In this document: piece after piece, positions 10,446-62,963 of the stretch
Numbering within the stretch: position 1 is the first letter of the stretch
Layout: every line of letters starts with the position of its first letter
Origin: Candidatus Jorgensenbacteria bacterium
GTDB lineage: Bacteria; Patescibacteriota; Minisyncoccia; UBA6257; GWB1-50-10
Reading direction: 5' to 3'
DNA length: 64,000 bases
NCBI GenBank assembly: GCA_030648515.1
Contig: JAUSHK010000005.1
Coordinates: 162,895 to 226,894 of the forward strand
The notes under the pieces: generated by a model
The model's input: the letters and a program-made list of their open reading frames with translations, nothing else
Told to the model about the DNA's origin: nothing
Databases searched by the model: none
Made by a program: the position numbers and the translations under genes

Positions 10446-11753
10446 TTAGATTCCCCACAAACGAAACGAGCCGGAACTGCTTGTAGCATTTACATTGGAC
10501 GAGCTTGAGTAGTACTTGCTTGAGCCGGTGTAGAAACCGCTCGCATCAAGTCCGCTGGACCAATCCGTTTGCTGAAACGTCGCGTTTTTCCAGCGGGTTA
10601 CGAAACTCGCTAGCGCCGCTTGAAGCGTTGACGCTCCGTTATTCCATTCCACAGTTGCAGTTACTTTTTGTGTTGATGGATCATCGCTTGATCCGCCGGC
10701 GCACGGCGATACGCCGCTTATCGTACTTGATGAATCTGCTGTCCTGCACACATTTTCTACAGAAAACCACCGCGTGAAAATCCTATTGTTATAAAGGCGT
10801 TTTACATCATCTGCCGAGAAAGCGAGGTTATAGATACGGACGTCGTCAATGTAGCCGTTCCAATAAAAACCACTACTATGCCTGCCGATGTAGAGAGTGT
10901 CACTGTTACTTAACGAGCCGCTCTTTGCTGCTATGGTATTTATTAAATCCCCATCTACATACAACGCGGTGCCATTTGTCCTGTCGGCAGAAATGGCAAT
11001 GTTGTACCATATTCCAGTGCTTATTGCGCTACTTGTTGCGAGCGATGAATTCCCACTGCTTACTTCATATCCACCTTGAAATACGTTTGATGGACTAATG
11101 CATAATTGGTAGTTCGGGTATGCAGCCGCATTTTTTGTGATTATACAGTGGTATGCGCCGTCCAAGGCATTTGTATTTACCCATGCCGTTATTGTGAAAT
11201 CCCCGGTTGTGATGTTATTAGTGTTTTCCGCAGTTACATAGGCGTCTACGCCGTTAAAACTCAGACAGTTGCCGATCTTACACGTTGATGATGCCCGCGT
11301 TGGACTGTTCGTGAGAGTCCCATTATTGTTATTTCCCGTCGCGTCATACGTTGTTGTACTCGTTGAGGTGACATCCTCGTCAAATTTCCATTCGCCGACA
11401 AGCCCGTTTGTAACATCATTATCTAAAATGCCTTCTTTCCCCTGAACAACGAAAAGCCTAGAACTTGACGCATTCAAGTAATACTGCGTACTCGTTCCCT
11501 TTGTGAGTCCATATAAGTTTTGCCAACTCTCTCCGCTCCATGCGTTTACTTTATCAATAAGTTCCTGCCCTATGGTTGAAGCGGACTGATTCCGTTCAAT
11601 GCCGACGTTCGAACGCAAAACACTCGAAATCGCTATCGTCGCCCCGCCGATAATAATCGCTCCGACTGACAAACCAATAAGCACTTCAACGAGGGACTGG
11701 CCGACTCGATTAGTTAGTAGTGAGTAGTGAGTAGTGAGTAGTTTTTTAGACAT
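10446..11753 (-). CDS. type IV pilin-like (pseudopilin) protein with C-terminal LamG/concanavalin-like domain
   Basis: The leader MSKKLLTTHYSLLTNRVG is followed by a prepilin cleavage/methylation motif G|QSLVEVLIGL (Glu at +5). The C-terminal LamG-like region reads WNGYIDDVRIYNLAFSADDVKRLYNN. The ORF is open further upstream to 11810 (MSRRDIV...). Confidence 0.7.
   Translation of the reverse strand: MSKKLLTTHYSLLTNRVGQSLVEVLIGLSVGAIIIGGATIAISSVLRSNVGIERNQSASTIGQELIDKVNAWSGESWQNLYGLTKGTSTQYYLNASSSRLFVVQGKEGILDNDVTNGLVGEWKFDEDVTSTSTTTYDATGNNNNGTLTNSPTRASSTCKIGNCLSFNGVDAYVTAENTNNITTGDFTITAWVNTNALDGAYHCIITKNAAAYPNYQLCISPSNVFQGGYEVSSGNSSLATSSAISTGIWYNIAISADRTNGTALYVDGDLINTIAAKSGSLSNSDTLYIGRHSSGFYWNGYIDDVRIYNLAFSADDVKRLYNNRIFTRWFSVENVCRTADSSSTISGVSPCAGGSSDDPSTQKVTATVEWNNGASTLQAALASFVTRWKNATFQQTDWSSGLDASGFYTGSSKYYSSSSNVNATSSSGSFRLWGI
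11712..11743. repeat. 32-nt heptamer-array repeat R, copy 1 (AGTTAGT + 3x AGTGAGT)
   Basis: agttagtagtgagtagtgagtagtgagtagtt matches the copies at 44333 and 46161 at 31 of 32 positions. On the coding strand it is CTACTCA x3.5 and encodes LLTTHYSLLT. Confidence 0.9.
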
Positions 11754-11791
11754 ATGTAAATACGATAAGATTATTTTATCAGTTCTATCTA

Positions 11792-11829
11792 CTATGTCCC
11801 TTCTGGACATCTCCCATAGGGAGACAAAC
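11792..11829. repeat. double-hairpin element H, copy 1 (ctatGTCCCttctGGACatCTCCCataGGGAGacaaac)
   Basis: Two adjacent 4-5 bp hairpins. The second copy, in reverse-complement orientation, is at 44518..44555 (34 of 38 identical). The GGGAG-ATG-TCC core encodes MSRRDIV on the minus strand. Confidence 0.85.
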
Positions 11830-11848
11830 TACCAACTACAAACTTCAC
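11824..11848. repeat. inverted heptamer-array repeat R-prime, copy 1 (acaaactaccaactacaaacttcac)
   Basis: Shares the 17-mer actaccaactacaaact with 46618..46648. Its reverse complement is built of the same AGTNNGT heptamer units as R (AGTTTGT AGTTGGT AGTTTGT). Confidence 0.8.
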
Positions 11849-13020
11849 TTTAGGTCATTATACATGCTCAACACCTCCGCTGCGGTGAGCGCGCGTTTAT
11901 AGATGCGGACCTCGTCAATTGAACCACTGAAATAATCCGTTGATTGCGCCCCTATTGCCGTATACCCGCCAACAGTTTCAGTGTTTGCCTGCGCTAATGT
12001 ATTTGCGCTAAGCGTTTCTTCTGTTCCATCAAGATACAATTTTGGCGTTGTCGCATTTACCCCTATCACAGCGCAAATGTTATGCCAACTTGTATCAATC
12101 GCGGATGTTGATTTAGCATCGCCGTGCCCGGTATGACTGTACCAAAAATTGCCATCTGAAGTTACGGTAAAAATATATCCGTTTGCGGTATTGTCTATTC
12201 CTCCATAATTAATTCTTGTAGAAACTATTCCGCCACCCACGCCGGTGTTTCTTTTTACCCACGCACATATCGTTTTTGCATCGTTTGCGCCTGCGCCTGA
12301 ATTAGTTAGAGCGCTTACATAACTACTTACGCCGTCAAAACTCAGACACCCTCCAGCTTTGCAGCTTGAACCGGAAGCCCAGGTCGGACTATTTGTTGCC
12401 GTGCCATTATTACCCTGTCCTGAAGCGTCATATGTTGTTGTCGCCGTTCCTTCATCAAAATGCCAGTATCCTACCATTCCAGATTCAAAGCGCGTCGTAA
12501 CGCTGCCGCGCGTATTTACAATCACATCTCCCATAAACGCATCAGCGGCGCCGGTTACAATTGATACAATTTTTTTTGATGAAAGCGCGCCTGTTCGCGC
12601 CGCGAACGCTAGGTCAAGCGTACTTGAGGTGTACGGGTTTGAAAATCTTACATTGCGGGTTGAAAGCGCATATGTATTTGTGGTAGTTCCAGCACTAAAG
12701 CTTGTTCCTTGAAACACGTCGTAGATTTGCGAAGAAGTCGTATTGATAAAGTGGACTCCCCACGCGAGCCCGCTCTCCTGGGCTATTGAACGATTTTTTG
12801 CATCGTTTATCGCCGCGGAAAGTTCGCGAAGCGTGAGTTTTATGTTTTGGCTTCCTCCAAATCGCCCCATTACAGCCACGCCAGCAACTGTGAGTATCAC
12901 CATAAGCCCAATCACAATTAAGAGTTCAATGAGGGTGAAACCACCGCACGCCTTGAAGCGCGTTGGTATTAAGTATCTAGTATCATGTATCATGTATTTT
13001 TTCTGCGTATTTTTTTCCAT
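11845..13020 (-). CDS. type IV pilin-like protein with C-terminal LamG domain
   Basis: Classical G|FTLIELLIVIGLM prepilin motif after the leader MEKNTQKKYMIHDTRYLIPTRFKACGG. LamG-like C-terminus reads SGSIDEVRIYKRALTAAEVLSMYNDLK. Confidence 0.75.
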   Translation of the reverse strand: MEKNTQKKYMIHDTRYLIPTRFKACGGFTLIELLIVIGLMVILTVAGVAVMGRFGGSQNIKLTLRELSAAINDAKNRSIAQESGLAWGVHFINTTSSQIYDVFQGTSFSAGTTTNTYALSTRNVRFSNPYTSSTLDLAFAARTGALSSKKIVSIVTGAADAFMGDVIVNTRGSVTTRFESGMVGYWHFDEGTATTTYDASGQGNNGTATNSPTWASGSSCKAGGCLSFDGVSSYVSALTNSGAGANDAKTICAWVKRNTGVGGGIVSTRINYGGIDNTANGYIFTVTSDGNFWYSHTGHGDAKSTSAIDTSWHNICAVIGVNATTPKLYLDGTEETLSANTLAQANTETVGGYTAIGAQSTDYFSGSIDEVRIYKRALTAAEVLSMYNDLK

Positions 13021-13053
13021 ACTTAATACTTTATACTTGCTACCTGATACTTT
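12980..13053. repeat. heptamer tandem arrays at the 5' end of the pilin-like gene: (GTATCAT)x2.5 inside the leader codons and (ATACTTN)x3+1 just upstream
   Basis: gtatcatgtatcatgtat lies at 12980-12997 (coding strand ATACATGATACATGATAC, each unit carrying an ATG). atacttaatactttatacttg...atacttt lies at 13019-13053. Confidence 0.8.
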
Positions 13054-14257: not shown

Positions 14258-14323
14258 AGTAATTGGTAATTGGCTTTTATGTTATTTTCTCAAATTTAAT
14301 ATCTAATTACTAGCTGTTAACCG

Positions 14324-17168: not shown

Positions 17169-17333
17169 AGTGTGACTATATCGCAAAACTTTTATTTGCA
17201 CAACACCAACGGATTCCGATTTAGAGATTAAAGATTTTTTTAGTTATCCCAGCGGGCCGAGACATAAAGGCTCATCGGCTAACACCTTAATTTTAAACTA
17301 TACAATTTTAAAAACTGTATAACGACGAATATA

Positions 17334-18826
<1,493 letters not shown>

Positions 18827-22256: not shown

Positions 22257-22338
22257 TTAAACACAAGAAACGCTGTTCAGCAATTGCCTTATTTCTAAAT
22301 TGCTGTATGTGATTAGATGGGGATGCTCCTTGTTCTAT

Positions 22339-22374
22339 AGCACAGGTGGTATGACATGTCATACCACCTGTGCT
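22339..22374. promoter_or_regulatory. 36-bp perfect palindrome overlapping a -10-like TATAAT in a divergent intergenic region (candidate operator)
   Basis: agcacaggtggtatgacatgtcataccacctgtgct is immediately followed by tataat (22374-22379), about 19 nt before the probable start of the HTH gene. The GGTGGTATGAC arm recurs at 22812-22835. Confidence 0.6.
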
Positions 22375-22397
22375 ATAATTATGTTATAGCTAACAAT

Positions 22398-22784
22398 ATG
22401 CCATCTCCGCTACCGTTGAAAAACCTTTCTTTATCGCACAAGGAATTGGAAAGGATGTATTGGAAGAAGATATTGAAATCCGAAAAACTTTTTGATTCGC
22501 TGATTACCTCGAGCGAACGCCACAACATAGTTATGCGTGCCGCAGTAGCGGAACTTGTAGATTCAGGAATGGGGACTCGACAAATCTCAAGAGAGCTTAG
22601 TATTTCTCGGCAAACCATAAGCAATATAAAAAGGATTACTAAAGAGAGTGCTTATAAAAGTTACCGCGAACGAGGTAAAACAGAACGGAGAAAGAAAGCG
22701 TATAACGGCAACTCTTCTCAGAAGAAAAAAGAACATGACCAGCACTACCGCCAAACTAAGTACGGAAAAGTTTACTTGCCTTGA
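22398..22784 (+). CDS. TrpR-like / YerC-YecD family helix-turn-helix protein
   Basis: ERMYWKKILKSEKLFDSLITSSERHNIVMRAAVAELVDSGMGTRQISRELSISRQTISNIKR resembles YerC/YecD and the Trp-repressor fold. The ORF is open from 22356 but the palindrome overlaps that start. Stop is TGA. Confidence 0.55.
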   Translation: MPSPLPLKNLSLSHKELERMYWKKILKSEKLFDSLITSSERHNIVMRAAVAELVDSGMGTRQISRELSISRQTISNIKRITKESAYKSYRERGKTERRKKAYNGNSSQKKKEHDQHYRQTKYGKVYLP

Positions 22785-22802: not shown

Positions 22803-22849
22803 CAGATTTTGGGTGGTATGACACGTCATACCACCGCGCTTTAAATCTG
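22803..22849. terminator. extended hairpin between convergent genes (bidirectional terminator candidate; shares an arm with the 22339 palindrome)
   Basis: cagatttt-G-GGTGGTATGAC-ac-GTCATACCACC-gcgc-tttaaatctg. The outer stem overlaps the fba stop codon. Confidence 0.55.
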
Positions 22850-33545: not shown

Positions 33546-33620
33546 TTTGTGCTGCACAGAAGCGGGAATTTAACCCGCGAGTTTTCTTTGTGAGAAAAGA
33601 CGATCGTTTTCTGCGCTGCG

Positions 33621-33690
33621 CGGCGGGAGAAGGATTCGAACCTCCGTAATCCCATTTGAATAGGATGCTCTGCCTCTAAGCTATCCCGCC
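33621..33690 (-). tRNA. tRNA with non-canonical anticodon loop (6- or 8-nt; candidate anticodons CAA/UCA), G73 discriminator
   Basis: Good acceptor (GGCGGGA/TCCCGCC), D arm and canonical T arm (GGAGG-TTCGAAT-CCTTC). The anticodon region ATCCT-ATTCAAAT-GGGAT only folds with an 8-nt loop; the alternative TCCTA/TGGGA stem leaves a 6-nt loop. Confidence 0.55.
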
Positions 33691-37219: not shown

Positions 37220-38299
37220 CTATCTTATTTTTTTACGAAGCGCCTCAAGTTCTATTTTCAATTTATTAATCTGCTTTTGCTGTTCCTTTACTGCCTCAAT
37301 AAGCGGCGCAACTAAGTTTGCGTACTGAAGCGACATCACGCCGGTTGCTTCATCGGTTGAGACAAGCTCTGGAAAAACTTTTTGCGTATCTTGTGCGATG
37401 AGCCCTATGCTCCCACTTCCATCTTTTTTCCATTCAAATGAAACGCCCTGCAACTGCATTATTTTCTGAAGCGAGTTCTGAAGTGGCTTTATATTTTCTT
37501 TCATCCTGACATCGGATGAATAATAAAACGCTGTTGCCTGAACATTTCCGGTTACGGCTAATTTATATGAGCCCGGGTTTGTGTTTCCTATGCCAACGCT
37601 ATAACTCGTTGAGGACGCATAAAGGTTGGAACCGGAAAGAGTCCAGTGGTTAGACACGTTTGCTGCGGCTGTAGTTTGAATAGTATTGTCTGAAAATACA
37701 ATTCCATAACTTGAACTCGCGATTCGCATATTTCCGTTTGATATAGTGCTTGTACCAACTATGTGAAGAGGCGTTGCAGGATTAGTTGTCCCGATACCTA
37801 CCAGGCCAGCGGAACTGATTCGCATTACTTCAGTGCTTGAGCCAAGGCGCACGCCACTTTGAACATCAAGTTTATACGCCGGCGCGTTAGTCCCGATGCC
37901 GATGCGTTCATTTGTAGCATCAACAAAGAGAACTGTATTAGCCGACGCGGCTCCCTGAAAAGTGTAGTTGCCTTTTCCTACTACCGAGCCAAAAACTCCG
38001 GTTGAAACGTTCCCGGCGGACGTCGTTGTAGCTACGGACCCGCTTACGGCTGATGTCTGCGTGGTGCCGTCAAAAAATTTAATTCCGTTTAATGCATAAA
38101 TCGTGCCGGCTCCCTGGCTTGTTGTTGTGCCCACTGAAAGACTTCCGAGAATAGTGGTTGTTGACGCGTTTAATATTCTATAAACACCATCAAAATCAAG
38201 GTCGCTGCCAACGTTTATGGCCGCCGTCAGAGAAACAGTTCCTAGAAAAAGCGTGACGGCTAAAACTATAAAAATTACTCTTTTATTTTTTTCTCCCAT
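37220..38299 (-). CDS. tail-fibre-like surface protein with C-terminal intramolecular chaperone (peptidase S74-like) domain
   Basis: Signal peptide and GIGTxxPxxxL-type beta-helix repeats (RIGIGTNAPAYKLDV, LVGIGTTNPATPLHIV). The C-terminus LQGVSFEWKKDGSGSIGLIAQDTQKVFPELV...LVAPLIEAVKEQQKQINKLK matches the endosialidase chaperone / S74 domain pattern. Confidence 0.6.
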   Translation of the reverse strand: MGEKNKRVIFIVLAVTLFLGTVSLTAAINVGSDLDFDGVYRILNASTTTILGSLSVGTTTSQGAGTIYALNGIKFFDGTTQTSAVSGSVATTTSAGNVSTGVFGSVVGKGNYTFQGAASANTVLFVDATNERIGIGTNAPAYKLDVQSGVRLGSSTEVMRISSAGLVGIGTTNPATPLHIVGTSTISNGNMRIASSSYGIVFSDNTIQTTAAANVSNHWTLSGSNLYASSTSYSVGIGNTNPGSYKLAVTGNVQATAFYYSSDVRMKENIKPLQNSLQKIMQLQGVSFEWKKDGSGSIGLIAQDTQKVFPELVSTDEATGVMSLQYANLVAPLIEAVKEQQKQINKLKIELEALRKKIR

Positions 38300-38352: not shown

Positions 38353-38892
38353 TTATTTCAATTTATTAACAATGAGCGTTCCACCCACTTTATCTCGTCC
38401 AACGCACGAATCGCGGCAAAAGAATTCATATTGGCCGTAGGAAGCAGCGCTAAATTGCAGGCGACCAGTTTCTCCTTTTAATACCTTCCTGTATGAGCCG
38501 GTGTCCGGCAAGAAAAAGTCGTAAGCATTGTCAATCGCTTTTATTCTTAAATCCACTGTATCGCCCTCGTTTACAACAATCACCGACGGCACGTATTTAT
38601 TATTATTCCCTTGGATTTCAAATACGCGAAAAGCGTACGAGCCTTGTTTGTTCACGCTAATTGGCACAGCAACTCCAGTGGGTGTTGATGTCGCGCCATC
38701 CGGAGTTTCTATGTCTATAGAAAGTTTTTCCCTTGTGCCTCCCTGCACGCTTGGAAGCGCGTCTGAATTCCACGGGCGGAACCCATCAAGCTTGCGCGTT
38801 GATTTTTCATAATAACTCCAGCTGAAATAGCCGGCTATAAGCAGGACTATTAAAAGCCCTATAATTAGATCGCGTTTGACGTTAGAGTCCAT
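38353..38892 (-). CDS. membrane-anchored cupredoxin-fold paralog (Cu ligands absent; CxxxC present)
   Basis: N-terminal TM helix, then a beta-sandwich domain ending YEFFCRDSCVGRDKVGGTLIVNK. Paralogous to 40448, 41037 and 46657. Confidence 0.45.
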   Translation of the reverse strand: MDSNVKRDLIIGLLIVLLIAGYFSWSYYEKSTRKLDGFRPWNSDALPSVQGGTREKLSIDIETPDGATSTPTGVAVPISVNKQGSYAFRVFEIQGNNNKYVPSVIVVNEGDTVDLRIKAIDNAYDFFLPDTGSYRKVLKGETGRLQFSAASYGQYEFFCRDSCVGRDKVGGTLIVNKLK

Positions 38893-38923
38893 TCTAATTT
38901 AGTTTTATTATATCAAACCGGCT

Positions 38924-40441
38924 TTATAAAAAACTTACTTTGTAATCAAGACGCAGGCGGTCAAGAAACGGCGTGGTTTCTGTGTCGCTGTCAGGAGTGA
39001 ATCGCGCGCGCCACAAAAGCCGGCTTCTGTTTTCTCCGCTAAAACTAACGTCTTGATTAAGCGTGGCAGGCACCCATGTTACGCCATCACTTGAAAGCGC
39101 AAACTCAACTTTCCCTCCTGAAGTAGAAAAATCTAGTTCTGAAATTTTTGCGCTTCGTACTTCAGCCGGATAGTTGTTGATATTCGCCGATGTTACTTCA
39201 CGCGATTTGCTTTTATCAAAGCCGTCGTCTTTTATCTCCCAAAATTCTGTATTCAGCGCATTGCCAGTTTTCGCGCGTAAAACCACCTCGCCTTTTTGAG
39301 TTGCCTCAATATTAAACGAGGCATTTGAAGCGTTCCGTAATGGCCCAACGAGAGACGTGAGGTCGGCTATGCCTTGGATTTCTCTGGTTTTATTTTGAAA
39401 TAGTTTTATAAGTTTTGGATTGCCGGACGTGAGGCTGAAAATATACCACGCAGTAGATTCCGAATCGTTCCCGACTTGCGTACGCAGAACAACTGGCTGA
39501 AAACCATCATCCATAAGTCGCGAGTGAAAGAAGTATGAAAGATCTGTTGGTGTTTCGCCCCCACGAATTCGATACGCGATGCCTTCATACGCGCCATACA
39601 TCGCAATCCAATCATTGTCGTTCCCGCCGAAACCAAGCGTCCCTGGGTACTGTGAAACAAAAGGATTCCCCTCCCCGCCAAACACCTTACTGAAATTCTT
39701 GCCGTCAAAGTAAAATGCCCATCCCTCATATGTTCCATCATTGCGCCGAGTCACTGCGCCAAGCAAAAGCAACGCATCTAAGTTCCCGACGGAAATATTT
39801 ACTAGCTGTTTTCCTTGTAAGTCTGCTGGAAGCGAAAGCTGGCTACCTTGAAATAAAAGCTCAAAATCGCGCTGGGAAAAACATTTACTGCCCGCGCAAC
39901 GGACGTCCTCTCCATTCGACCCGCGTTCAACGAACCCGTTCGGCTGGCTCAGAGCAGGTCTTCCCGCGAAAGCCGTGATTTTTTGCGCTGATATTACTGT
40001 CGGAAACATAAACGCCGTAGCCGACCTGTCCTGGTGCATTGTCGTTTTTGACTGGTCAATCCATCCGACGCCAGAAAAAAGATCAGTAAAACTTGAGAGC
40101 GTGAGATTTTCTTCTGCTTTCTGTTGAACGGCGAATGGCGATCCTGGCGGAAGCGGCTCTTTGGTGATTACTGGAGCAATACTTGGCTTTGTGCCAAATT
40201 GAATTGATAAAGGCGGTCTTATTCCTGATGGTGCCGTTCCGATTTTCTGCTCCGTTTCAAATGTCCGTAAATTTGTAAGAAGCTGTTTCCCAAGTCCAGC
40301 CTCAAACCATGAGCGGAGCAAACTTGCCCCGCCGATTATAAGCACTGCGAACCCGAGAATAAGAACCATCGTAGTAAATGCAACGCCGACGCCGGAGAAG
40401 ACGCGGCGCAGTGAATCACGGTTTTTAAAAACTCGATTCAT
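38924..40441 (-). CDS. large membrane-anchored extracellular hypothetical protein
   Basis: 505 aa with an N-terminal TM helix and a long extracytoplasmic domain. No recognisable motif. Confidence 0.45.
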   Translation of the reverse strand: MNRVFKNRDSLRRVFSGVGVAFTTMVLILGFAVLIIGGASLLRSWFEAGLGKQLLTNLRTFETEQKIGTAPSGIRPPLSIQFGTKPSIAPVITKEPLPPGSPFAVQQKAEENLTLSSFTDLFSGVGWIDQSKTTMHQDRSATAFMFPTVISAQKITAFAGRPALSQPNGFVERGSNGEDVRCAGSKCFSQRDFELLFQGSQLSLPADLQGKQLVNISVGNLDALLLLGAVTRRNDGTYEGWAFYFDGKNFSKVFGGEGNPFVSQYPGTLGFGGNDNDWIAMYGAYEGIAYRIRGGETPTDLSYFFHSRLMDDGFQPVVLRTQVGNDSESTAWYIFSLTSGNPKLIKLFQNKTREIQGIADLTSLVGPLRNASNASFNIEATQKGEVVLRAKTGNALNTEFWEIKDDGFDKSKSREVTSANINNYPAEVRSAKISELDFSTSGGKVEFALSSDGVTWVPATLNQDVSFSGENRSRLLWRARFTPDSDTETTPFLDRLRLDYKVSFL

Positions 40442-40447
40442 AATCCG

Positions 40448-41026
40448 CTACTGCACCACCATTGTTCCTCTTTCGCTTCCGTGATTTGGAACATCGCAGT
40501 GAAATGTATATGTGCCGCGCGCCGGAGCGTTGAAGGTTATGGCGCGCGTCTCGTTCGGCCCGATTCCCATCGCAACAGCAGAAAGAGACGGATCGTCAAA
40601 TTTAAATACGTGCGTTTTCTCATCGGTTGATGAAATCGCAAGTGTTATTACGTTTCCAGCTGACACGGAGAATGTCGCGGGCAAAAAACCGCCCGTCGAC
40701 ACCGAGAGTTTTATTGCTTTCGAGGGCAGTTGTTTTTCTGAAATAGAATTAGATTGTTGTGGCGCTTCCTGCGTGCCGGGCACTGCGTTTAATTTTACTG
40801 GGGCACCATTTTGCGTCACTACCTTCCCCGTTTCTGAAACCGGGCTGGCCCCAGGCACCAGTGGAACAAGTAAGGTATTTTTTGTTGCTGTTTGTGTCCC
40901 GGAAACAGTTCCGTTGTTTGGAGTTGTTGGCGATTTTGAGTTGCTTCCCCAGACCGCAAAATAAATTATCGCGATAGCGCCTACTACGCCGATTACAATC
41001 CAGGCTTTTGAGTTATTTTCTTCCAT
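40448..41026 (-). CDS. membrane-anchored cupredoxin-like protein with a candidate type-1 copper site
   Basis: TM anchor, STPG-rich linker, then KTHVFKFDD...GTYTFHCDVPNHGSERGTMVV. This is a His...Cys-x4-His-x6-Met pattern in a cupredoxin-like (PF13473-type) domain. Confidence 0.55.
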   Translation of the reverse strand: MEENNSKAWIVIGVVGAIAIIYFAVWGSNSKSPTTPNNGTVSGTQTATKNTLLVPLVPGASPVSETGKVVTQNGAPVKLNAVPGTQEAPQQSNSISEKQLPSKAIKLSVSTGGFLPATFSVSAGNVITLAISSTDEKTHVFKFDDPSLSAVAMGIGPNETRAITFNAPARGTYTFHCDVPNHGSERGTMVVQ

Positions 41027-41036
41027 TCGCTATTTA

Positions 41037-41618
41037 TTATTTTACAGTCATTTTTCCCACAAGACCTTGCGCGGCCTGGCCAGGAACTGCCGAGCGGAAA
41101 TCATATACCCCAGGAGCCGGCGCATTGAAATTGATAACCCTTGATTGGCCGGGCGGCACGCCAACCGTAACTGCCGAGAGTGACGAATCGTCAAATGCAA
41201 AAAGATAACTTTGACCATCAAGCGAAGTGACTGCGAGTGTCACCACGGAGCCCGACCGTACTTCAAATGTTGACGGAGAAAACCCTTTTGATGATGCCGT
41301 GATTTTTATCGCTGTCGGCGGAATGCTTCCTTGTCCGACTACAACTGATTGCTTCGGCGCATCGGCAGAGCCCGGCGCTGCGTTATTTTGTGCGGTTTTA
41401 CCCGATTCAGTGATTACTTCTCCGCCCTTAACCTGACTAATACCCGGCAATGTTGTCCCTGGTGTTGCTATAGGCATTCCCCCTCCAGGCACTACGGTTC
41501 CGCTACTAAGATTATTTCCTGCTGGAGTCCATCGAGTAAAAATAACTAGTGCGAGAACTGCAACGGCGGCAACTACTCCGATTATAATCCATATTATTGT
41601 TGTTTTGTTTTCTTCCAT
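41037..41618 (-). CDS. membrane-anchored cupredoxin-fold paralog (metal ligands lost)
   Basis: Same architecture as 40448. The C-terminus YDFRSAVPGQAAQGLVGKMTVK lacks Cys and His. Confidence 0.5.
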   Translation of the reverse strand: MEENKTTIIWIIIGVVAAVAVLALVIFTRWTPAGNNLSSGTVVPGGGMPIATPGTTLPGISQVKGGEVITESGKTAQNNAAPGSADAPKQSVVVGQGSIPPTAIKITASSKGFSPSTFEVRSGSVVTLAVTSLDGQSYLFAFDDSSLSAVTVGVPPGQSRVINFNAPAPGVYDFRSAVPGQAAQGLVGKMTVK

Positions 41619-41797
41619 AGAATTAACTTATAACTAATAATGTATAACCTATGACCCATGACGATTGCTGTTATTTGTTATTGGTTATTTGTTATACGTT
41701 GCTTTTATTTTTGACCTTTCATTGACGGCCGACGACCTATGACATCCAATGGCCGTAATTAGTTCCTTGTCGTTTGTCATTAGTTATTAGTCATTTG
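41619..41797. repeat. AT-rich intergenic region with several short direct and inverted repeats (candidate promoter/regulator-binding region)
   Basis: ttatttgttat x2, three ATGAC-centred copies (cctatgac, ccatgacg, cctatgacat), and ttgtcattagtta/ttagtcatttgtcac. Confidence 0.45.
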
Positions 41798-44227
41798 TCA
41801 CCTGAATATTACATCACTTCCGAAAATCACGTTACTTCCGAGCGAGATTTCCTGCGATTCGCCCGTTGTGAATGACGTATATGAACCATAACTTGTTCCT
41901 CCGGAATTTGTGGCAAAGGCACGAACATAATACGTTACGCCCGCGGAAAGTTCCGATACTAACAAACTATATTCCCCCGTTCCGTATGACCCGCTTTCGC
42001 TAACTGTCCATGTGTCGTCTTGCGTAAGGCCATATTTGAAACCGCGAGCCGTTGCATTTGCTCCGCCGGTAGCTGTAATATTCCCATTTAATGTTGAGCT
42101 CGATACCCCAATGTTTGTTATACCGCTTGTTGTTATTGTCGGTGCGACTGCTGGAGTTGCAAACGAAACATACGAACCATACGCCGTACCTTGAGCGTTC
42201 GTAGCAAAAGAACGCACATAATAAGTTGTTCCAGGCGAAAGTCCGGTCAAAGAACCCGTGTACGCGCCGGTATCGTAAGTTCCGCTTTCGCTCACTGTCC
42301 ACGTGTCGGTCTCAGTCAAGCCGTATTTGAAACCACGAGTAGTCGGCGACGAACCTCCTATATCCGTTATGTTTCCATTCGCAGTTGCCGTTGTTGAGCT
42401 TACGCTTGATGCCGCTTGCGTTGTCACTACCGGAGATGCTGTAATAGTCGCAAAAGAGACATAGGAGCCATAACCAAAACTAGTAATAGAATATTGGTAA
42501 ACTTTCCCCTGACCAATATCAAGAAGGTACATACTGGTTCCGTCTGGCTTGAAATATGAACTTGTAAGCGTTACAGAAGGACTGTTTGCAAAACTTACAC
42601 TGTCGTAACTCGCAGTTGAAACATCCCATGGAGTAGATAGGGTATATTGATATGAGTTCGCCACGCCATATCCGGCGCTGAACATTTTAGTTCCGTCCGA
42701 ATTAAAGAATACAGCGTCTGAACGGCTTAACTGGCTCCCGACAGAAAAGGACTTACTATCATAACTTGCTGTAGAAACATCCCACGGGGTTGATAAGGAA
42801 TATTGGGTGACAATTTTCGTATCATAAGGGCTTACATACATCTTAGTTCCGTCTGATTTAAAATAAGCGTTAATTGGGGATCCTGAAGCCGTGCTCATAA
42901 ATTTAGTATCATAGGTTGCGCTTGTCACGTCCCAGGCGGAACTTAATGAATATTGGAATACTTTTTGTGCACCGTAATCAGTCACGTACATTTTAGTTCC
43001 GTCACCTTTAAAGAATACTCCAGCTGTAAAATAAGATTGGCCTGCCACGCTATAACTTGAATTATAACTTGCCGTAGAAACATCCCACGGGGTTGATAAT
43101 GTATATTGGCCAACTATATGATAAGTAGCGTCGTATGAAGTAATATACATACTGGTTCCATCTGGCTTGAAAGAAACACCAAACTTGTTATCTTTAGCAT
43201 TCGTTATAGCGTAGTTCACGCTGTCATAACTTGCCGTTGATAGGCTCCAAGGCGTCCCTTTCATAGCAAACGCACGGGAATAGTAAGTAGTACCAGGTGA
43301 AAGCCCGGTTAACGAACCCGTGAACGCCCCCGTTCCAAATGAACCATCTTCGCTTATACTCCACGTGTCTGTTTCCGTGAGGCCGTACTTGAAACCGCGA
43401 GTTGTGGCGTTGGCTCCATTGGTAGCAGTGATGTTGCCGTTCCCAGTCGCAGTTGTCGATCCAACACTGGATGCCGCTTGTGTGGTGACTGTCGGCGCGA
43501 TTGCAAGTGGATAAGCCAAACCATTTCCAGAATTATATAAAGTTGTTACTTCAGTAGAAGTTAAAGCCCTACTCCACACTCCTATTTCATCCATATCTCC
43601 TGAATAAAACCATGCAGTTTCGTCGTAACTTGCTCCAAAAGTAACATCTGCTCCAATATCTATTGAACCAAGCCCTGTTAATTGTGTGCTTTGTATTCCA
43701 TCTAAATAAATATACGCTGTTGCTCCTGAATAAGATAAAACTACATGGTGCCAGGCGTTATCGGTTGGAGTTGCTAAATTACTTTCTTTTACTGTTGCGT
43801 TGTCCAAAAACCCAAGAGTGTTTGCTGCTCTGTTTAAATGAAACATAAATCTTGGCGAATAACTATCAAGTAAAGATCTATATGTTCCGCCCGCTGTTTT
43901 TATCCACATTGAAATTGAATAGGCAGTTCCCAACGATGACAATCCGTTCACTGAAATATAATCATTCCCGCTAAGCGTATACGCCGTCCCTATTTTTCCG
44001 GTAGTGCCGTATGTCATTGTGGCACTGACTGTCCCAGTATTTGCTCCGGCGCTATCCGCCGCGTTTCCGCTTGCTTCGTCAAATTTGTAATAAGAAACCA
44101 AACTATCGGTTAAAGCGGCTGCCTTCGTTGTAAAAATGCCTGCTCCGAAATATGTAAGAATGAGCGCGACGACTGCGAGGACGCTGGTTATTTCGTGCGC
44201 AAGTTTTTTTATTTTAGTTTTATTCAT
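41798..44227 (-). CDS. giant membrane-anchored surface protein with LamG domain, YxLSTPWDVSTASYD repeats and Ig/FN3-like repeats
   Basis: TM anchor, then a LamG region (LVSYYKFDEASGNAADSAG...YIYLDGIQ). Then at least 6 copies of the Q(Y)xLSTPWDVSTASYDS repeat and 3 copies of the TTQAASSVxSTTATxNGNIT...RGFKYGLT repeat. Confidence 0.6.
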   Translation of the reverse strand: MNKTKIKKLAHEITSVLAVVALILTYFGAGIFTTKAAALTDSLVSYYKFDEASGNAADSAGANTGTVSATMTYGTTGKIGTAYTLSGNDYISVNGLSSLGTAYSISMWIKTAGGTYRSLLDSYSPRFMFHLNRAANTLGFLDNATVKESNLATPTDNAWHHVVLSYSGATAYIYLDGIQSTQLTGLGSIDIGADVTFGASYDETAWFYSGDMDEIGVWSRALTSTEVTTLYNSGNGLAYPLAIAPTVTTQAASSVGSTTATGNGNITATNGANATTRGFKYGLTETDTWSISEDGSFGTGAFTGSLTGLSPGTTYYSRAFAMKGTPWSLSTASYDSVNYAITNAKDNKFGVSFKPDGTSMYITSYDATYHIVGQYTLSTPWDVSTASYNSSYSVAGQSYFTAGVFFKGDGTKMYVTDYGAQKVFQYSLSSAWDVTSATYDTKFMSTASGSPINAYFKSDGTKMYVSPYDTKIVTQYSLSTPWDVSTASYDSKSFSVGSQLSRSDAVFFNSDGTKMFSAGYGVANSYQYTLSTPWDVSTASYDSVSFANSPSVTLTSSYFKPDGTSMYLLDIGQGKVYQYSITSFGYGSYVSFATITASPVVTTQAASSVSSTTATANGNITDIGGSSPTTRGFKYGLTETDTWTVSESGTYDTGAYTGSLTGLSPGTTYYVRSFATNAQGTAYGSYVSFATPAVAPTITTSGITNIGVSSSTLNGNITATGGANATARGFKYGLTQDDTWTVSESGSYGTGEYSLLVSELSAGVTYYVRAFATNSGGTSYGSYTSFTTGESQEISLGSNVIFGSDVIFR

Positions 44228-44230
44228 GTT

Positions 44231-46240
44231 TTATTTAATAATAAAGCTTGCTTTTTCATTTTGATCTTTCGCTAATGTGGGCCAATTTTTCCAATCAAAT
44301 CGCTTTCCGACGAGGCGGAAGGAGATGGGAATAGTTTGTAGTGAGTAGTGAGTAGTGAGTAGTTGAGCGGAGAAGATGACTTTGTTGCCGGAGATTGCGT
44401 ATGAAACTGGGGCTGATACTCCGATTGGGGTGGCAAAAACATCAACATTGTCAGCGGAAAAATCCACGGCGTTTTTCCAGACCCACAGGTCCGAGCCCAC
44501 CTCGACTTTAGAAAAGTCGATGACGTGCTCGTAGGAGTTTGTCTCCCTACGGGAGATGTCCCGTAGGGACATAGTTGGGACAAGAGTCGCGCGACCGATA
44601 AATTCTTCACGGACGCCTCCGGCGATTGCCGACGCGTATGTTGAATATTTTTTCCCATCAATTTCATAGAGCGGATCGATAGTCGCCGCAGTGATTTTAT
44701 TTACTCCTACAAGATTATTGTTATTCATATTCAAATTTGTGATCGCCGCGCCGCCGAATGAAAGATTGCCGTTCAGCGACGATGTTCCGGTGACGAGAAA
44801 TGTTCCTTCAACAGAGAGCGTGTTTGTCGGAGTTGTCGTTGCGATGCCGACTGCTCCGGAAGTCGTGAGCGAGTATGGCATCTGCCCCGCATCGGGATCA
44901 AAATAATACGAGGAATCCGCAACGTCGTAATAAACGCCGGCCGAGAGATTGCCGTGGATGATGGCACTTTTTACGAACGATCCTGCCGGGCCGACTTCCA
45001 AGTATTCCGTCGGGGATGTGGTTGCGATACCAACTTTCCATGCCGTGCTTGATGCGTATATCGTGCTTCCGTTGAGCAACCAGAGTCCGGCGCTACCACC
45101 CGAGATAGCAGAGTCAACATAACTTTTCGTTGTGGCATCACTATCGCCTACTGGCGTCCCCACGACTACTGGCTGGGAAAAATACGAAGTGCCATTTACT
45201 TCAAATTTGTATGACGGGGAAGTAGTCGCTATACCGACGTTTCCGCCGTTTGGATTTAATAACAATGGTATTTCTGTCGCGAGATTACTTGAGTCATAAC
45301 CCTGTAGCCATGCCCCATATGGGGATGAAAGAGCTACGCCCATATCTAGAGCACCATTTGTGTTTCCGCTCCAAATACGAAATAACCCATTAGTAGTTGT
45401 TCCGGATGTTGCGGGTCCCACTGCAGCACCTGCAATAATTAATTTTGCATTTGGAAAATTTAATCCACCCCAAGTGTTGACTCCAATAGATGCGCTGCCA
45501 ATAACATCTAATTTATTTACCGGAGTACTGGTACCAATTCCAACATTTCCTGCTGTCGTCGCAAGCGTTGTTGTGCCGGTTATGTTTGTTGTACCAAGCG
45601 TGTAAAATGTCGCCGGCAAATTGCTTGTTGTTGAAGTACCAACAGCTAGACCGAGCGGAAACGCGTAATTTGCAGTTGTAAATGGACCGCCTAAAACATT
45701 CGCGGCGTCAATACTTGAAAGATACGCGCCCGTCCCGCGAAACGCGCCGTTTACTGTGCGTATGTCGCCCCCAACAATTAGCCGTTCATCAACGCCTGTT
45801 GAGGTCGCTTTAATGCCGATTCCAATACTGCCAAACTTATTAATGTCCATAACGACAAATCCTGGTAGGTTATCTGGCGCCCCTGATTCTCGATAAAGCT
45901 GGAGATTGCCAAAATTGCGGGCCGACCAAATATATGAATGGCCCGAGGTAAGGTTCTTTACGCCGACTCCAGGACTTGTTGTTGAAGCTACTATAAACAC
46001 GTACCCGTGCGACGACGAGCCGCTTTCCGTTGAGGTGGTGTTAAAAGTACTAACTGGGGAAGGCGCCGTTGTTCCAAAACCGATATTTAAATTTGAATCA
46101 ACACTAAACAGTCCCCCGCCGGTGCCCGCGGATTGGGTAGGACCGATGAAGGCACGGACAGTTTGTAGTGAGTAGTGAGTAGTGAGTAGTTCGAAAACGA
46201 GAATTACTACTACAAAGAAAGTTCTAGGGAAGTTTTTCAT
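44231..46240 (-). CDS. tail-fibre-repeat surface protein (contains the R repeat at both ends and the H element)
   Basis: Hydrophobic N-terminus, multiple VGIATTSPxxxLEV-type repeats, and a long Gly/Thr/Ser-rich beta-helix-like body. R copies lie at 46161-46192 (codons 17-27) and 44333-44364 (near the C-terminus). H lies at 44518-44555, antisense. Confidence 0.5.
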   Translation of the reverse strand: MKNFPRTFFVVVILVFELLTTHYSLQTVRAFIGPTQSAGTGGGLFSVDSNLNIGFGTTAPSPVSTFNTTSTESGSSSHGYVFIVASTTSPGVGVKNLTSGHSYIWSARNFGNLQLYRESGAPDNLPGFVVMDINKFGSIGIGIKATSTGVDERLIVGGDIRTVNGAFRGTGAYLSSIDAANVLGGPFTTANYAFPLGLAVGTSTTSNLPATFYTLGTTNITGTTTLATTAGNVGIGTSTPVNKLDVIGSASIGVNTWGGLNFPNAKLIIAGAAVGPATSGTTTNGLFRIWSGNTNGALDMGVALSSPYGAWLQGYDSSNLATEIPLLLNPNGGNVGIATTSPSYKFEVNGTSYFSQPVVVGTPVGDSDATTKSYVDSAISGGSAGLWLLNGSTIYASSTAWKVGIATTSPTEYLEVGPAGSFVKSAIIHGNLSAGVYYDVADSSYYFDPDAGQMPYSLTTSGAVGIATTTPTNTLSVEGTFLVTGTSSLNGNLSFGGAAITNLNMNNNNLVGVNKITAATIDPLYEIDGKKYSTYASAIAGGVREEFIGRATLVPTMSLRDISRRETNSYEHVIDFSKVEVGSDLWVWKNAVDFSADNVDVFATPIGVSAPVSYAISGNKVIFSAQLLTTHYSLQTIPISFRLVGKRFDWKNWPTLAKDQNEKASFIIK
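44333..44364. repeat. 32-nt heptamer-array repeat R, copy 2
   Basis: agtttgtagtgagtagtgagtagtgagtagtt is identical to 46161-46192. Confidence 0.9.
44518..44555. repeat. double-hairpin element H, copy 2 (inverted relative to copy 1)
   Basis: gtttgtCTCCCtacGGGAGatGTCCCgtaGGGACatag is the reverse complement of the 11792-11829 architecture. The plus-strand ATG at 44536 opens a 37-codon ORF MSRRDIVGTRV... Confidence 0.85.
46161..46192. repeat. 32-nt heptamer-array repeat R, copy 3
   Basis: Identical to 44333-44364. Lies just inside the 5' end of ORF 44231..46240 and 45 nt downstream of the avd-like gene's stop. Confidence 0.9.
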
Positions 46241-46614
46241 AGACTGTTTACTAATTTATTCAACATTTTCATCACTTCACTTAATAGTTTTTGAGATTCG
46301 CCACAAAATTCGGTATTGTTGCAAAAATTTAGTTGTCTTGCAATTTCAATTTGAGTTTCTAGCTCAGCGCCGGACCCATAAGCGTTTAGTAAAAAATGTC
46401 GAAAATCTTTTCGTGAACTTCTTCTGCTTCCTTCGGCGATGTTTGAAGGTATTGAAACTACGGCTCGCTTCATCTGTATCCCAAGCGCGTATGTTTCCGT
46501 TTGTGGAAATTGATTAACTAATTTGTAAATTGATTTCACTAATTCCATGGATTTATTCCAAACTATTAAATCTTTGTATGAGCTTATTTTATCTGTTGAG
46601 TTTTGTTGTTCCAT
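46237..46614 (-). CDS. four-helix-bundle protein (23S rRNA intervening-sequence protein / Avd-like, TIGR02436 family)
   Basis: YKDLIVWNKSMELVKSIYKLVNQFPQTETYALGIQMKRAVVSIPSNIAEGSRRSSRKDFRHFLLNAYGSGAELETQIEIARQL is the canonical pattern of this family. Confidence 0.8.
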   Translation of the reverse strand: MEQQNSTDKISSYKDLIVWNKSMELVKSIYKLVNQFPQTETYALGIQMKRAVVSIPSNIAEGSRRSSRKDFRHFLLNAYGSGAELETQIEIARQLNFCNNTEFCGESQKLLSEVMKMLNKLVNSL

Positions 46615-46617
46615 TTT

Positions 46618-46648
46618 CTACTCACTACCAACTACAAACTACTCACTG
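46618..46648. repeat. inverted heptamer-array repeat R-prime, copy 2
   Basis: ctactcactaccaactacaaactactcactg lies 4 nt upstream of the avd-like start codon. It is inverted relative to R at 46161-46192. Confidence 0.8.
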
Positions 46649-46656
46649 CTTCATTC

Positions 46657-61496: not shown

Positions 61497-61614
61497 TTAA
61501 CATTTGTAAGTTTCTAATGACAATTGTACTATTCTATTTTCTATCTGTCAACTATCCTCAATTCTTGTGATTCACTTTTCGCAATTCTTAAATCCTGAAT
61601 CTTGAATCTTTCCA

Positions 61615-62754
61615 TCACCGAACCACAGCGTTGAATTCAGCCTTCGTGCGGAATTCTATGTCCTTGTGGATTTTGTCCACTTCTTCATTTGTGAGCGTGC
61701 GCTCGTTTGAACGATATGTGATGCGGAATGTATAACTGATTTTATCCTTGCCGAATTTTTCTTCGTTCTCATACTTATCAAAAAGTTTTACCTCTTCAAC
61801 TAAATCCCCCGCGCAGTCGCGGACTATTTCATAATAACTATTTAAGCTCACATTTTTATCAACGACGAATGAAATGTCGCGGTACGTCATCGGATACTTG
61901 CTGACTTCGTGGTACGCGCTGTTTAAATCTTTAAATTGGCTTGTTATCCGCTTGTCGGTTGACCAGAAAATCCGAATGTCTGGAATGTTCATCTTTGTCA
62001 TAGCCAAGCGCTCCAAACCAAAGCCAAACGCCCAGCCGTTATAAACATCCGGGTCAAGTCCCAGTTTTTTCAAAACTTCCGTGTGCACAACGCCGGAACC
62101 TAAAATTTCAAGCCAATTACCATTAAGTTGTATCGCCATTTCAATGCTCGGATTTGTGAATGGAAACGTGTCCTCAGAAATTTTGTATTTCACGTCTGCG
62201 CCGTAAATGTTTTTCGCGATATCGACCAATACTTCCGTGAGCTCCGGTATACCAATAATTTTTTTGTCTTTTTTACACACATACCATCCGTCTATTTGAT
62301 GGAATGCCGGGTAATGTGAGCGGTCAATTTCGTCTTTCCTGTACACCTTGCCATAACATAACGCTCCAACCTCGCCATCCTTTTCTAATCTTTTTCTGGT
62401 TTCTTCTGATAGGTGGTACGGCCACATCACTGTCGTGTGCGTACGGAGTATCCAATCTTTTTCCAGATAGTATGTGTCAGTTTCCCTCCGGCTCGGGTGG
62501 TCCGGCGGCGTGTTCAATAAGTCAAAGTTATTTTTTACGTTTACGATTTCTGGAATTTCCAAAACATCAAAATCTTTAAAACGCGGTATTTTAAGAATCG
62601 CGTCAATAAAAAACTTGAGCGGAGAGCCCACGGTTCTCGTGAGATCAGGCAGTACTAGAAGCCGCTTAATGCGCCGGTTTTTGAAATCGTCTTTTTTCTC
62701 AAGCCACGCAAGGATTGCGTCAGCTTCCCTGTCATCAATCTTTATATTCCTCAT
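61615..62754 (-). CDS. pheS: phenylalanine--tRNA ligase alpha subunit
   Basis: Class II motifs FPFTNPSIE and GWAFGFGLERLAM. 379 aa. Stop is TGA. Confidence 0.85.
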   Translation of the reverse strand: MRNIKIDDREADAILAWLEKKDDFKNRRIKRLLVLPDLTRTVGSPLKFFIDAILKIPRFKDFDVLEIPEIVNVKNNFDLLNTPPDHPSRRETDTYYLEKDWILRTHTTVMWPYHLSEETRKRLEKDGEVGALCYGKVYRKDEIDRSHYPAFHQIDGWYVCKKDKKIIGIPELTEVLVDIAKNIYGADVKYKISEDTFPFTNPSIEMAIQLNGNWLEILGSGVVHTEVLKKLGLDPDVYNGWAFGFGLERLAMTKMNIPDIRIFWSTDKRITSQFKDLNSAYHEVSKYPMTYRDISFVVDKNVSLNSYYEIVRDCAGDLVEEVKLFDKYENEEKFGKDKISYTFRITYRSNERTLTNEEVDKIHKDIEFRTKAEFNAVVR

Positions 62755-62756
62755 GT

Positions 62757-62826: not shown

Positions 62827-62963
62827 GTAGTGAGAATACCAAACCCTGGACATATTTTCAACTTGCGCATTCATATGAAAATCGTGTTTAATGATGATAT
62901 CAGCCCACGCCTCTGGCGGGGCGCTGAAAATTATAACTTCGTTTCACATCAGGTAATTTTCGC

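Follow-up and report, generated by a model that had tools for sequence, protein, structure and literature searches.

REP/BIME (repetitive extragenic palindromic sequences/bacterial interspersed mosaic elements) and Correia-type elements are small co-transcribed inverted repeats at gene junctions, and the stems of Correia elements serve as substrates of RNase III and change the stability of mRNA. In Coxiella burnetii, the intervening sequence (IVS) of the 23S rRNA carries an S23p open reading frame (ORF) in a loop, the 28-bp stem of which is cut by RNase III (PMC4990558). Tandem heptamers, two or three depending on the strain, lie directly upstream of this ORF (PMC4990558). In the 5' untranslated region (5'-UTR) of Haemophilus influenzae hmw1 and hmw2, a heptamer array makes up the left arm of an imperfect hairpin, and RNase III cleaves this left arm and thereby controls adhesin expression (PMC12721329). 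Dispersed heptamers have also been described, namely TAACTGA in Beggiatoaceae, cyanobacteria and Bacteroidetes (PMC4679880) and GGGAATC/GGGGAYT in Xanthomonas and Nostoc (PMC4692102). The stretch of DNA analysed here (the window) comprises 64,000 nucleotides of a Candidatus Jorgensenbacteria bacterium (contig JAUSHK010000005.1), in which a 32-nt heptamer-array repeat occurs three times. These 32-mers are read as the CTA-phased arms of heptamer inverted repeats that lie at operon junctions and typically enclose a gene of family PF05635, that is, as parts of an IVS-like element in mRNA that would be subject to processing; this reading is considered reasonably likely. What seems to be new is that an IVS-like cassette occurs outside rRNA and is connected with dispersed heptamer repeats, a class already known. 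A literature search found papers on rRNA IVSs, on short tandemly repeated repetitive (STRR) sequences, on TAACTGA, on GGGAATC and on hmw, but no description of PF05635 genes bracketed by heptamer arrays in an mRNA context.

Inverted heptamer arrays around the 32-nt repeats

The arrangement consists of (NNNNTAG)n upstream and (CTANNNN)n downstream, which together form imperfect inverted repeats of 7-8-nt units. The features concerned are the following:

46160-46191, minus strand: copy 3 of the 32-mer, the same sequence as copy 2; CTA-phase 3' arm (C/A-rich, stop-free) of the cassette
46237-46614, minus strand: cargo gene for a 125-aa 23S_rRNA_IVP/S23p four-helix-bundle protein (Pfam PF05635), referred to below as IVP
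46618-46650, minus strand: TAG-phase 5' arm (G/T-rich) of the IVP cassette, GCAGTGAGTAGTTTGTAGTTGGTAGTGAGTAG
11712-11743, minus strand: copy 1, AGTTAGTAGTGAGTAGTGAGTAGTGAGTAGTT, matching at 31/32 positions with a single mismatch at position 5; CTA-phase 3' arm of a hairpin without cargo gene, translated in a prepilin leader
11744-11822, minus strand: loop of this pilin-junction hairpin, ~79 nt
11823-11850, minus strand: TAG-phase 5' arm of the pilin-junction hairpin, GTGAAGTTTGTAGTTGGTAGTTTGT
44333-44364, minus strand: copy 2, AGTTTGTAGTGAGTAGTGAGTAGTGAGTAGTT, identical to copy 3 (32/32); orphan CTA-phase arm in a variable linker of the fibre-like protein

Copy 3 and the array at 46618-46650 are taken to be the arms of an intact cassette between a cupredoxin-like and a fibre-like gene. 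They form the longest and best inverted repeat in the 64-kb window (46159-46189/46618-46648, 31-nt arms, 81% complementary) and pair in both the minimum free energy (MFE) and the centroid fold across the 430-nt IVP gene (z -4.0). The duplex energy of copy 3 with the IVP 5' arm is -40.7, as compared with -19.1 ± 3.9 in shuffles. The 125-aa protein matches PF05635 with an E value of 1.3e-35 and 122 bits against a cut-off of 33.8 (Pfam). Its closest solved structure is that of the Xanthomonas S23p protein XCC0516 (PDB 2GSC, E 4.9e-22, five chains in the entry), which has been described as a homopentamer (PMC4990558). Between the stop codon of the cupredoxin-like gene upstream and the 5' arm there are 7 nt, and between this arm and the IVP ATG there are 4 nt; IVP stop and fibre start share bases in the sequence ATGA. 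The cassette is thus flanked by a cupredoxin-like ORF and a fibre-like ORF and not by a 23S rRNA helix. No 23S rRNA gene was found in the 64-kb window, where Rfam matched only the 16S gene (17328-18826) and tRNAs, and no Rfam family covered the arms. Scans for promoters and terminators around the IVP cassette and the pilin-junction hairpin gave results at chance level.

The initial annotation, made from the letters of the window, had described three near-identical 32-nt copies, and the sequence bears this out; 0.00 chance matches to the 25-nt core of the 32-mer are expected (100 dinucleotide shuffles). The positions given for copies 1 and 2 were correct, whereas copy 3, given as 46161-46192, had been placed one base too high. 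The CTACTCA array on the minus strand encoding LLTTHYSL was likewise confirmed on translation: the 32-mer reads (CTACTCA)x3 plus a variant unit and gives LLTTHYSL(L/Q)T, and each of the three tracts consists of three perfect units and one or two variant units. The near-identity of the copies had been attributed to gene conversion or a shared recombination site rather than to drift. They are indeed members of one dispersed element family and not products of drift, while the recombination site is retained below as a low-rated rival. What had been overlooked are the complementary arrays, the IVP gene between copy 3 and its partner, and the other period-7 arrays.

The copies had also been said to be embedded in surface-protein genes, and they are translated there, in a prepilin leader, a signal peptide and a C-terminal linker. 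Copy 1 is situated in the prepilin leader (MSKKLLTTHYSLLTNRVG, followed by QSLVEVL) of a LamG pilin-like protein (10446..11753, minus) with N_methyl and Laminin_G_3 domains (Pfam). Copy 3 is situated in the signal peptide of a 669-aa secreted repeat (fibre-like) protein (44231-46240), where it gives the peptide LLTTHYSLQT, flanked by the hydrophobic core and by the VRA/FIGP cleavage region, and copy 2 lies ~100 nt before the stop codon of the same gene. The earlier assignment of these settings to a LamG pilin leader and to N- and C-terminal sites of one protein stands, but the name 'tail-fibre-repeat' given to the latter lacks Pfam confirmation, although Peptidase_S74 is present in some homologues of the 669-aa protein. 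On reading the sequence, no alternative start codon was found downstream of the array in copies 1 and 3 (in copy 1, none up to Gly-1), and hence both arrays are necessarily translated. The open arm is in these cases translated within leaders that are removed from the mature protein. As 7 and 3 are coprime, (CTACTCA)n gives a single peptide, (LLTTHYS)n, in every frame and is stop-free in all three, whereas the complement (TGAGTAG)n has stops in all three. A CTAC-type arm, being stop-free in every frame, can therefore be absorbed into cleaved leaders or a loose linker, and this is why the arrays look as if they were embedded in surface-protein genes.

Copy 1 and the array at 11823-11850 would constitute a cargo-free hairpin at the pilin2-to-pilin1 junction. 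Pairing of the two arms is seen in the MFE and the centroid structure alike (z -4.4, duplex energy -22.7), and the 5' arm shares bases with the stop codon of the pilin gene upstream (11845..13020). The loop (11744..11822) contains two small internal hairpins, a weak promoter-like site at chance level and the pilin ATG (11753), and no remnant of an IVP gene was found in it. A hairpin of a different unit type surrounds the start of the upstream pilin gene, with its 3' arm again translated in the leader (KYMIHDTRYLIPT):

12966-13046, minus strand: second heptamer hairpin, (AAGTATN)n/(ATACNNG)n, fold z -3.8

The window holds eight period-7 arrays, as compared with none of period 6 or 8-12 and none in shuffles. 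They belong to several unit types and are located at gene junctions or gene 5' ends, and arrays of other unit types make further hairpins at other junctions of the pilus operon and elsewhere in the window. At 41625-41800 (minus), the array pairs AATGACN/GTCATNN and ATAACAA/GTTATNN, with a fold z of only -1.8, fill the 180-nt gap from an 809-aa LamG/FN3 protein to the next cupredoxin-like gene. Two short period-7 arrays (GTAATTG and TCTTGAA) lie at 14259-14273, between PilB and PilC, and at 61583-61610, immediately after the stop of ORF 61615..62754.

Copy 2 is best described as an orphan arm that may have become fixed in a permissive linker. It is found 1827 nt (609 codons) downstream of copy 3 in the same frame, and it precedes the conserved C-terminal FRLVGKRFDWKNWPT segment of the fibre-like protein. 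No complementary partner was found after the fibre stop codon, and in the absence of a local partner in the window this copy is considered an orphan. It is, however, 89% complementary over 27 nt to the IVP 5' arm 2.2 kb upstream, with a possible duplex of -39.8 (-40.7 for copy 3). The linker is short in most homologues, and several of these independently bear heptamer-like inserts of different unit types. In one related locus (L003), the array found in this linker complements the 5' arm belonging to a second IVP cassette, which follows immediately downstream. The surrounding region shows an alternation of cupredoxin-like secreted proteins (46657-47181, 41037-41618, 40448-41026 and 38353-38892) with large surface or fibre-like proteins (44231-46240, 41798-44227, 38924-40441 and 37220-38299, the last with Peptidase_S74), and this alternation (38353-47181) recurs in L003.

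IVP loci in other genomes and orthologous junctions

With a two-sequence IVP alignment as query, 80 loci with relatives of the window IVP (54-67% identity) were fetched, mostly from metagenome-assembled genomes (MAGs) of the candidate phyla radiation (CPR)/Patescibacteria, representing many named lineages, along with a few MAGs labelled as other phyla. The inverted-array architecture is general among them. At least three phased TAG units were present within 100 nt upstream of the IVP gene in 72 of 77 loci, as compared with 0.6% of control windows, the mode being 4-5 units. At least three phased CTA units were present downstream in 55 of the 77 (2.2% of controls). The unit spacing was 7 nt in 177 cases upstream and 121 downstream and 8 nt in 78 and 60, respectively; spacings of 6 or 9 nt were almost never seen. 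Judging from these sequences, the element conserved across lineages is the TAG/CTA core, with spacers that are free to vary, and the spacer subtype barely tracks IVP protein similarity (identity difference 0.014).

Complementarity of the arms was measured by the Smith-Waterman score with cross-locus and shuffled controls, raw duplex energy being uninformative as a cross-locus control since unit families recur from locus to locus. The two arms of one locus were more complementary than arms combined across loci (median score 32 vs 20, p 2.5e-13). The cassettes are embedded in operons: a same-strand ORF ended within 200 nt upstream of the cassette in 72 of 73 loci (median gap 47 nt) and another started within 150 nt downstream in 62 of 73 (median gap 33.5 nt). 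With co-directional neighbours so close, the arms take up nearly all of the intercistronic space. Of the 5' arms, 62 of 73 had stops in all three frames. IVP cassettes directly upstream of prepilin genes, with an arm in the leader, accounted for 5 of 78.

Similar structures are not confined to these MAGs. On cyanobacterial plasmids, five of six four-helix-bundle genes were flanked by heptamer arrays, three of them clearly as inverted pairs:

Nostoc edaphicum plasmid: (GGGAGTA)n/(TACTCCC)n, inverted pair
Anabaena sp. 90 plasmid: (GGTGACA)n/(TGTCACC)n, inverted pair, between cas6 and cas4
Picosynechococcus plasmid: GGAGATA/ATCTCCT, inverted pair, between cas10 and cmr3

A four-helix-bundle gene with heptamer arms also lies between cas6 and cas4 on a Pseudanabaena plasmid (the cas insertions are loci L210, L212 and L214). 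Insertion between cas genes may be the reason why the family has been reported as 'cas-associated'. Starting from the arrays, 120 metagenomic loci carrying (CTACTCA) tracts of at least 2.5 units were examined. Many of these were longer simple repeats from other organisms, and the free arrays reached 16 units; a TAG-type partner within 200 nt was found upstream of 18 of 98 free arrays, as compared with 2 downstream.

Exact-protein look-ups with the window IVP and fibre proteins returned no other contig, and the closest fibre homologue is 68% identical, with a range of 33-68% among relatives. Locus L002, also from Jorgensenbacteria, is syntenic with the window (CysRS, a 322-aa ORF, cupredoxin-like, IVP, fibre) and its arms are of the same type, the 3' arm again being located in the signal peptide (LLTTHYSLPT), despite an identity of only 33% between the two fibre proteins. 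In both loci the coding arm has four units and stays in frame, the differences being substitutions, while the non-coding 5' arm has four units in the window and six in L002. A gene for an IS200/IS605-type Y1 transposase (PF01797) is located at L002:2198-2914, two genes upstream of the IVP cassette, and has no counterpart in the window. The IVP genes of L003 are more distant, and their arms, of the types AATTTTT/AAAAATT and GTAATTA/TAATTAC, are still mutually complementary. Between IVP and fibre gene of that locus, at L003:3594-3986, four tandem ~110-nt units were observed, each with an AAATTTC-type heptamer array; the run contains Ns, a sign that the repeats may have disturbed the assembly.

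The junction orthologous to that of copy 1 differs from genome to genome, from absence of the element to hairpins with and without cargo. In L206, which is syntenic and has a pilin 62% identical, a hairpin of an unrelated family (TTTTCAA/TTGAAAA) is present with its 3' arm in the leader; in L205 a PDDEXK_3 gene lies between the arms, and in L204 an IVP-like gene. The leaders of about 100 pilin orthologues are hypervariable, ranging from 6-9 to nearly 40 residues, and the long leaders abound in peptides derived from heptamers of many types, with both arms often translated. Two leaderless calls among these orthologues, considered as candidate OFF alleles, turned out to be intact genes with mis-called starts. 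PDDEXK_3 (PF13366) was also seen as a second cargo type in inverted arrays (L003:8095-8765, L003:2260-2675 and L205:700-1220), with the arms ACGCAGAT/ATCTGCGT in L003 and CTACGAAT/ATTCGCA in L205. In L206, the PilB-PilC and PilC-pilin junctions bear solo hairpins made of arms of the L205 type. The presence of a predicted nuclease in the hairpin loop could have a bearing on mobility. In the public gene calls P0205 (L204:1251-3218) and P0212 (L205:777-2426), the cargo (IVP-like and PDDEXK_3, respectively) is fused with the downstream LamG pilin, an annotation artefact characteristic of such cassettes, which stems from continuation of the ORF across the open 3' arm.

Weighing of the explanations

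According to the explanation favoured here, the transcribed arms would pair into an imperfect stem of ~30 bp, a likely substrate for RNase III-type processing by analogy with rRNA IVSs and the hmw 5'-UTR hairpin. Such processing would separate the upstream and IVP cistrons from the downstream surface-protein mRNA and could set the 5' end of the latter or its translation. By the same analogy, we infer that the arms act as a processing or stability determinant at intercistronic junctions, with the cassette probably persisting as a selfish or low-cost insertion. Several observations weigh against this explanation or narrow it. A cut in the 3' arm would deprive the downstream gene of its start codon, and hence only cleavage of the left arm, as in hmw, would be productive; if cuts were made in the 5' arm alone, the mRNA downstream would stay whole, its start codon being located in what had been the loop. 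No sense-strand wobble bias was seen among the arm mismatches (G.U 58 vs A.C 58), and the complementarity can therefore not be assigned to RNA over DNA, where the arms would be terminal inverted repeats. Only 3 of 55 of the 3' arms were stop-free in all three frames, which means that absorption in any frame holds for the CTAC type only. An IVP gene was found at just one of the 120 metagenomic (CTACTCA) loci, with positive controls working, and hence heptamer arrays and hairpins make up a broader class in which IVP and PDDEXK_3 genes occur in a subset. The pilin junction of L208 has no hairpin and only an ATGA stop/start overlap, and since the hairpin is missing at some orthologous junctions, any host function must be dispensable. 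Finally, copy 2 has no partner nearby, and the explanation does not account for its perfect match to copy 3.

At the DNA level, the arrays could be terminal inverted repeats or recognition sites of a mobile or selfish cassette, of which the solo hairpins and orphan arms would be cargo-less derivatives comparable to miniature transposable elements with inverted repeats (MITEs) or REPs. Such a cassette would insert at gene junctions or into hairpins, and no host function would be needed. Taken as the explanation of the arrays this is a serious possibility, although short of probable; the selfish-cassette reading is about as well supported as the RNA processing proposed above, and the two are mutually compatible. 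The mismatches are strand-symmetric (G.U equal to A.C), and one and the same orthologous junction may be empty or hold a hairpin, IVP cargo or PDDEXK_3 cargo. The arm type follows the cargo, with TAG/CTA in 72 of 77 IVP loci and ACGAAT- or ACGCAGAT-type arms with PDDEXK_3. PDDEXK_3-type arms also form solo hairpins in L206, just as the TAG/CTA arm family is shared by the cargo-free pair 11823-11850/11712-11743 and the IVP-bearing pair 46618-46650/46160-46191, as would be expected of MITE- or REP-like derivatives. IVSs have long been suspected to be remnants of transposition (PMC4990558), and in L002 the Y1 transposase gene is only two genes off. On the other hand, no transposase, integrase or nuclease was found in or beside the window cassette, IVP is a four-helix bundle without known catalytic activity, and no target-site duplications were noticed at the window arms by eye, no systematic search having been made. 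Moreover, the cassette is vertically conserved at the same locus in two genomes, although the adjacent fibre proteins share only 33% identity.

It is rather unlikely that the arrays are primarily binding sites, with a pentameric IVP toroid or a host factor binding the phased (U/T)AG triplets, in the way that TRAP binds (G/U)AG, and regulating its own and neighbouring cistrons. The homologue bAvd binds nucleic acid in diversity-generating retroelements (DGRs). The TAG/CTA triplet at 7-8-nt spacing is invariant across lineages while the spacers vary, and distant IVP subfamilies have other unit types. The modal 4-5 units can be set beside the homopentameric state of the closest solved homologue (PMC4990558; PDB 2GSC, five chains), and that a pentamer may interact with 4-5 TAG units is an attractive idea suggested by these counts. 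The conservation of TAG is, however, explicable by common descent of the cassette or by its all-frame stops (62/73 arms), the spacer subtype barely tracks protein similarity (0.014), and the Coxiella S23p ORF has been reported as probably not translated (PMC4990558). The bAvd connection also raised the question of whether the four-helix-bundle gene encodes the Avd accessory protein of a DGR directed at the fibre protein. DGRs occur commonly in CPR, and a weak match to bAvd in Pfam was indeed obtained (26 bits). This score is below the cut-off of 40 and far from the 122 bits of 23S_rRNA_IVP, no reverse transcriptase was found among the ORFs of ~37.2-51.7 kb (~9 kb from the IVP gene in one direction and 5 kb in the other), and the only direct repeats in 36-54 kb were intragenic domain repeats, with no pair of the template repeat/variable repeat (TR/VR) type. 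With no reverse transcriptase, no TR/VR pair and a sub-cut-off bAvd score, this candidate was rejected and is regarded as exceedingly improbable.

Two further readings concern variation of the surface proteins. As direct repeats, copies 2 and 3 could delete, duplicate or exchange the 1.8-kb fibre body, or the array could invert against the 5' arm, giving antigenic variation. The two copies are identical (32/32), in frame and exactly 609 codons apart, several homologues have arrays in both the N-terminal leader and the C-terminal linker, and the fibre proteins diverge fast (33-68% identity). Nevertheless, such a role in recombination is highly unlikely, as no recombinase is nearby, 32 nt is marginal for homologous recombination, the C-terminal arrays of L001 and L003 differ in unit type from the N-terminal ones, and no deletion or inversion variant was found. 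The initial annotation, for its part, had regarded the tracts as slipped-strand contingency loci, in which gain or loss of one (CTACTCA) unit shifts the frame and turns the pilin and fibre genes on or off. That a 7-nt change shifts the frame is to be expected in principle, as the units lie inside ORFs of surface proteins and 7 is not a multiple of 3. Change in unit number clearly does occur in such arrays over evolutionary time: the 5' arm has four units in the window and six in L002, free metagenomic arrays have up to 16, the Coxiella IVS tracts have two or three by strain (PMC4990558), and Cyanothece strains differ by 7-nt indels (PMC4679880). There is also the precedent of hmw adhesin phase variation, where the heptamer tract forms a hairpin arm (PMC12721329). 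Natural hmw tracts, however, comprise 11-63 units, counts below 10 being hardly ever seen (PMC12721329), as compared with only three perfect units in each window tract. The coding arm of L002 retains four units and the frame, no frameshifted leaders were seen among ~100 pilin orthologues, and a frameshift in copy 2, near the 3' end, would cost no more than the ~33 C-terminal residues. The same arrays adjoin non-surface genes and occupy non-coding positions in most of the 80 loci. On/off switching thus finds no support here, and phase variation as the function of the tracts is unlikely, with a probability that is put quite low.

A wider proposal would combine several of these elements. PF05635 and PDDEXK_3 genes would be the cargo of widespread 'hairpin-loop gene cassettes', the pentamer would recognise the (U/T)AG arms in a TRAP-like manner, and the cassettes, together with derivatives that have shed their cargo, would be the source of STRR-type arrays in CPR bacteria and cyanobacteria and serve as intercistronic regulators, including those of pilins and cas operons. 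As a whole this is speculative and has a fairly small chance of being right.

Other repeats of the window and comparison with known systems

A perfect 42-bp palindrome (TATAGCACAGGTGGTATGACA and TGTCATACCACCTGTGCTATA on its two sides, 22336-22377) overlaps the start of an ORF for a 142-aa Trp-repressor-like helix-turn-helix (HTH) protein (22356-22784), and its 24-bp core recurs at 22812-22835, just past this ORF. These repeats are possibly operator sites or another small gene flanked by inverted repeats. The 16S rRNA gene is flanked by a 26-nt inverted repeat (17226-17251/18893-18918, 88% complementary), as expected of an RNase III processing stem. A tRNA with undetermined anticodon is located at 33620-33690 (ARAGORN; Rfam tRNA, 55 bits), and an extra tRNA at 62756-62827 (minus) was found by Rfam and is absent from the ARAGORN list.

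PF05635 (23S rRNA intervening sequence/four helix bundle/S23p) is a common family, and heptanucleotide arrays such as STRR have been noted in bacteria for decades. The arm-IVP-arm architecture, co-directional in operons across lineages, ties the two together. Because this architecture is conserved and near-universal, and cultured cyanobacterial hosts exist, questions about both have become directly testable. For the annotation of CPR genomes, it follows that odd N-terminal peptides of pilins and secreted proteins, such as LLTTHYSL, LQPTTYNL and IKNLKFKIL, are translated repeat arms in cleaved leaders, and that gene callers at times join a cargo gene and its downstream neighbour across the open arm (P0205, P0212). 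Caution is also advised in taking short heptamer tracts in surface-protein genes for phase-variation switches.

The closest described counterparts are the 23S rRNA IVSs with an S23p ORF (Leptospira, Coxiella burnetii, Brucella), which share with the window cassette the PF05635 protein and the position of its ORF in a loop closed by inverted repeats of ~28-30 bp. The window element, however, is located between protein genes of an operon and not in helix 25 or 45 of 23S rRNA, its arms are TAG/CTA-phased heptamer arrays, its 3' arm is translated in the downstream leader, and its processing is putative. The hmw hairpin is similar in having a heptamer array at or upstream of the 5' end of a surface gene as one arm of a long imperfect hairpin. 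It differs in that hmw tracts consist of 11-63 pure units and are non-coding and demonstrably phase-variable, whereas those of the window have 3-4 partly degenerate units and a coding 3' arm, a gene can occupy the loop, and variation in length was not seen. With the STRR, TAACTGA and GGGAATC repeats there are several points of agreement: 2-6 units of 7 nt, mostly intergenic and abutting start codons, with stops in all frames in one orientation and, in the other, occasional translation as a peptide of 7-aa periodicity. Those repeats have been described as direct repeats, with no systematic inverted partner or link to a gene family, while the arrays of the window type occur as inverted pairs with a near-universal link to PF05635 genes, also on cyanobacterial plasmids. 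REP/BIME and Correia elements are likewise small inverted repeats at junctions, and the solo hairpins may, like them, be non-autonomous derivatives; unlike them, the elements described here have arms made of heptamer arrays and cargo genes in the loop, with no sequence relationship to either and no RAYT or transposase partner identified.

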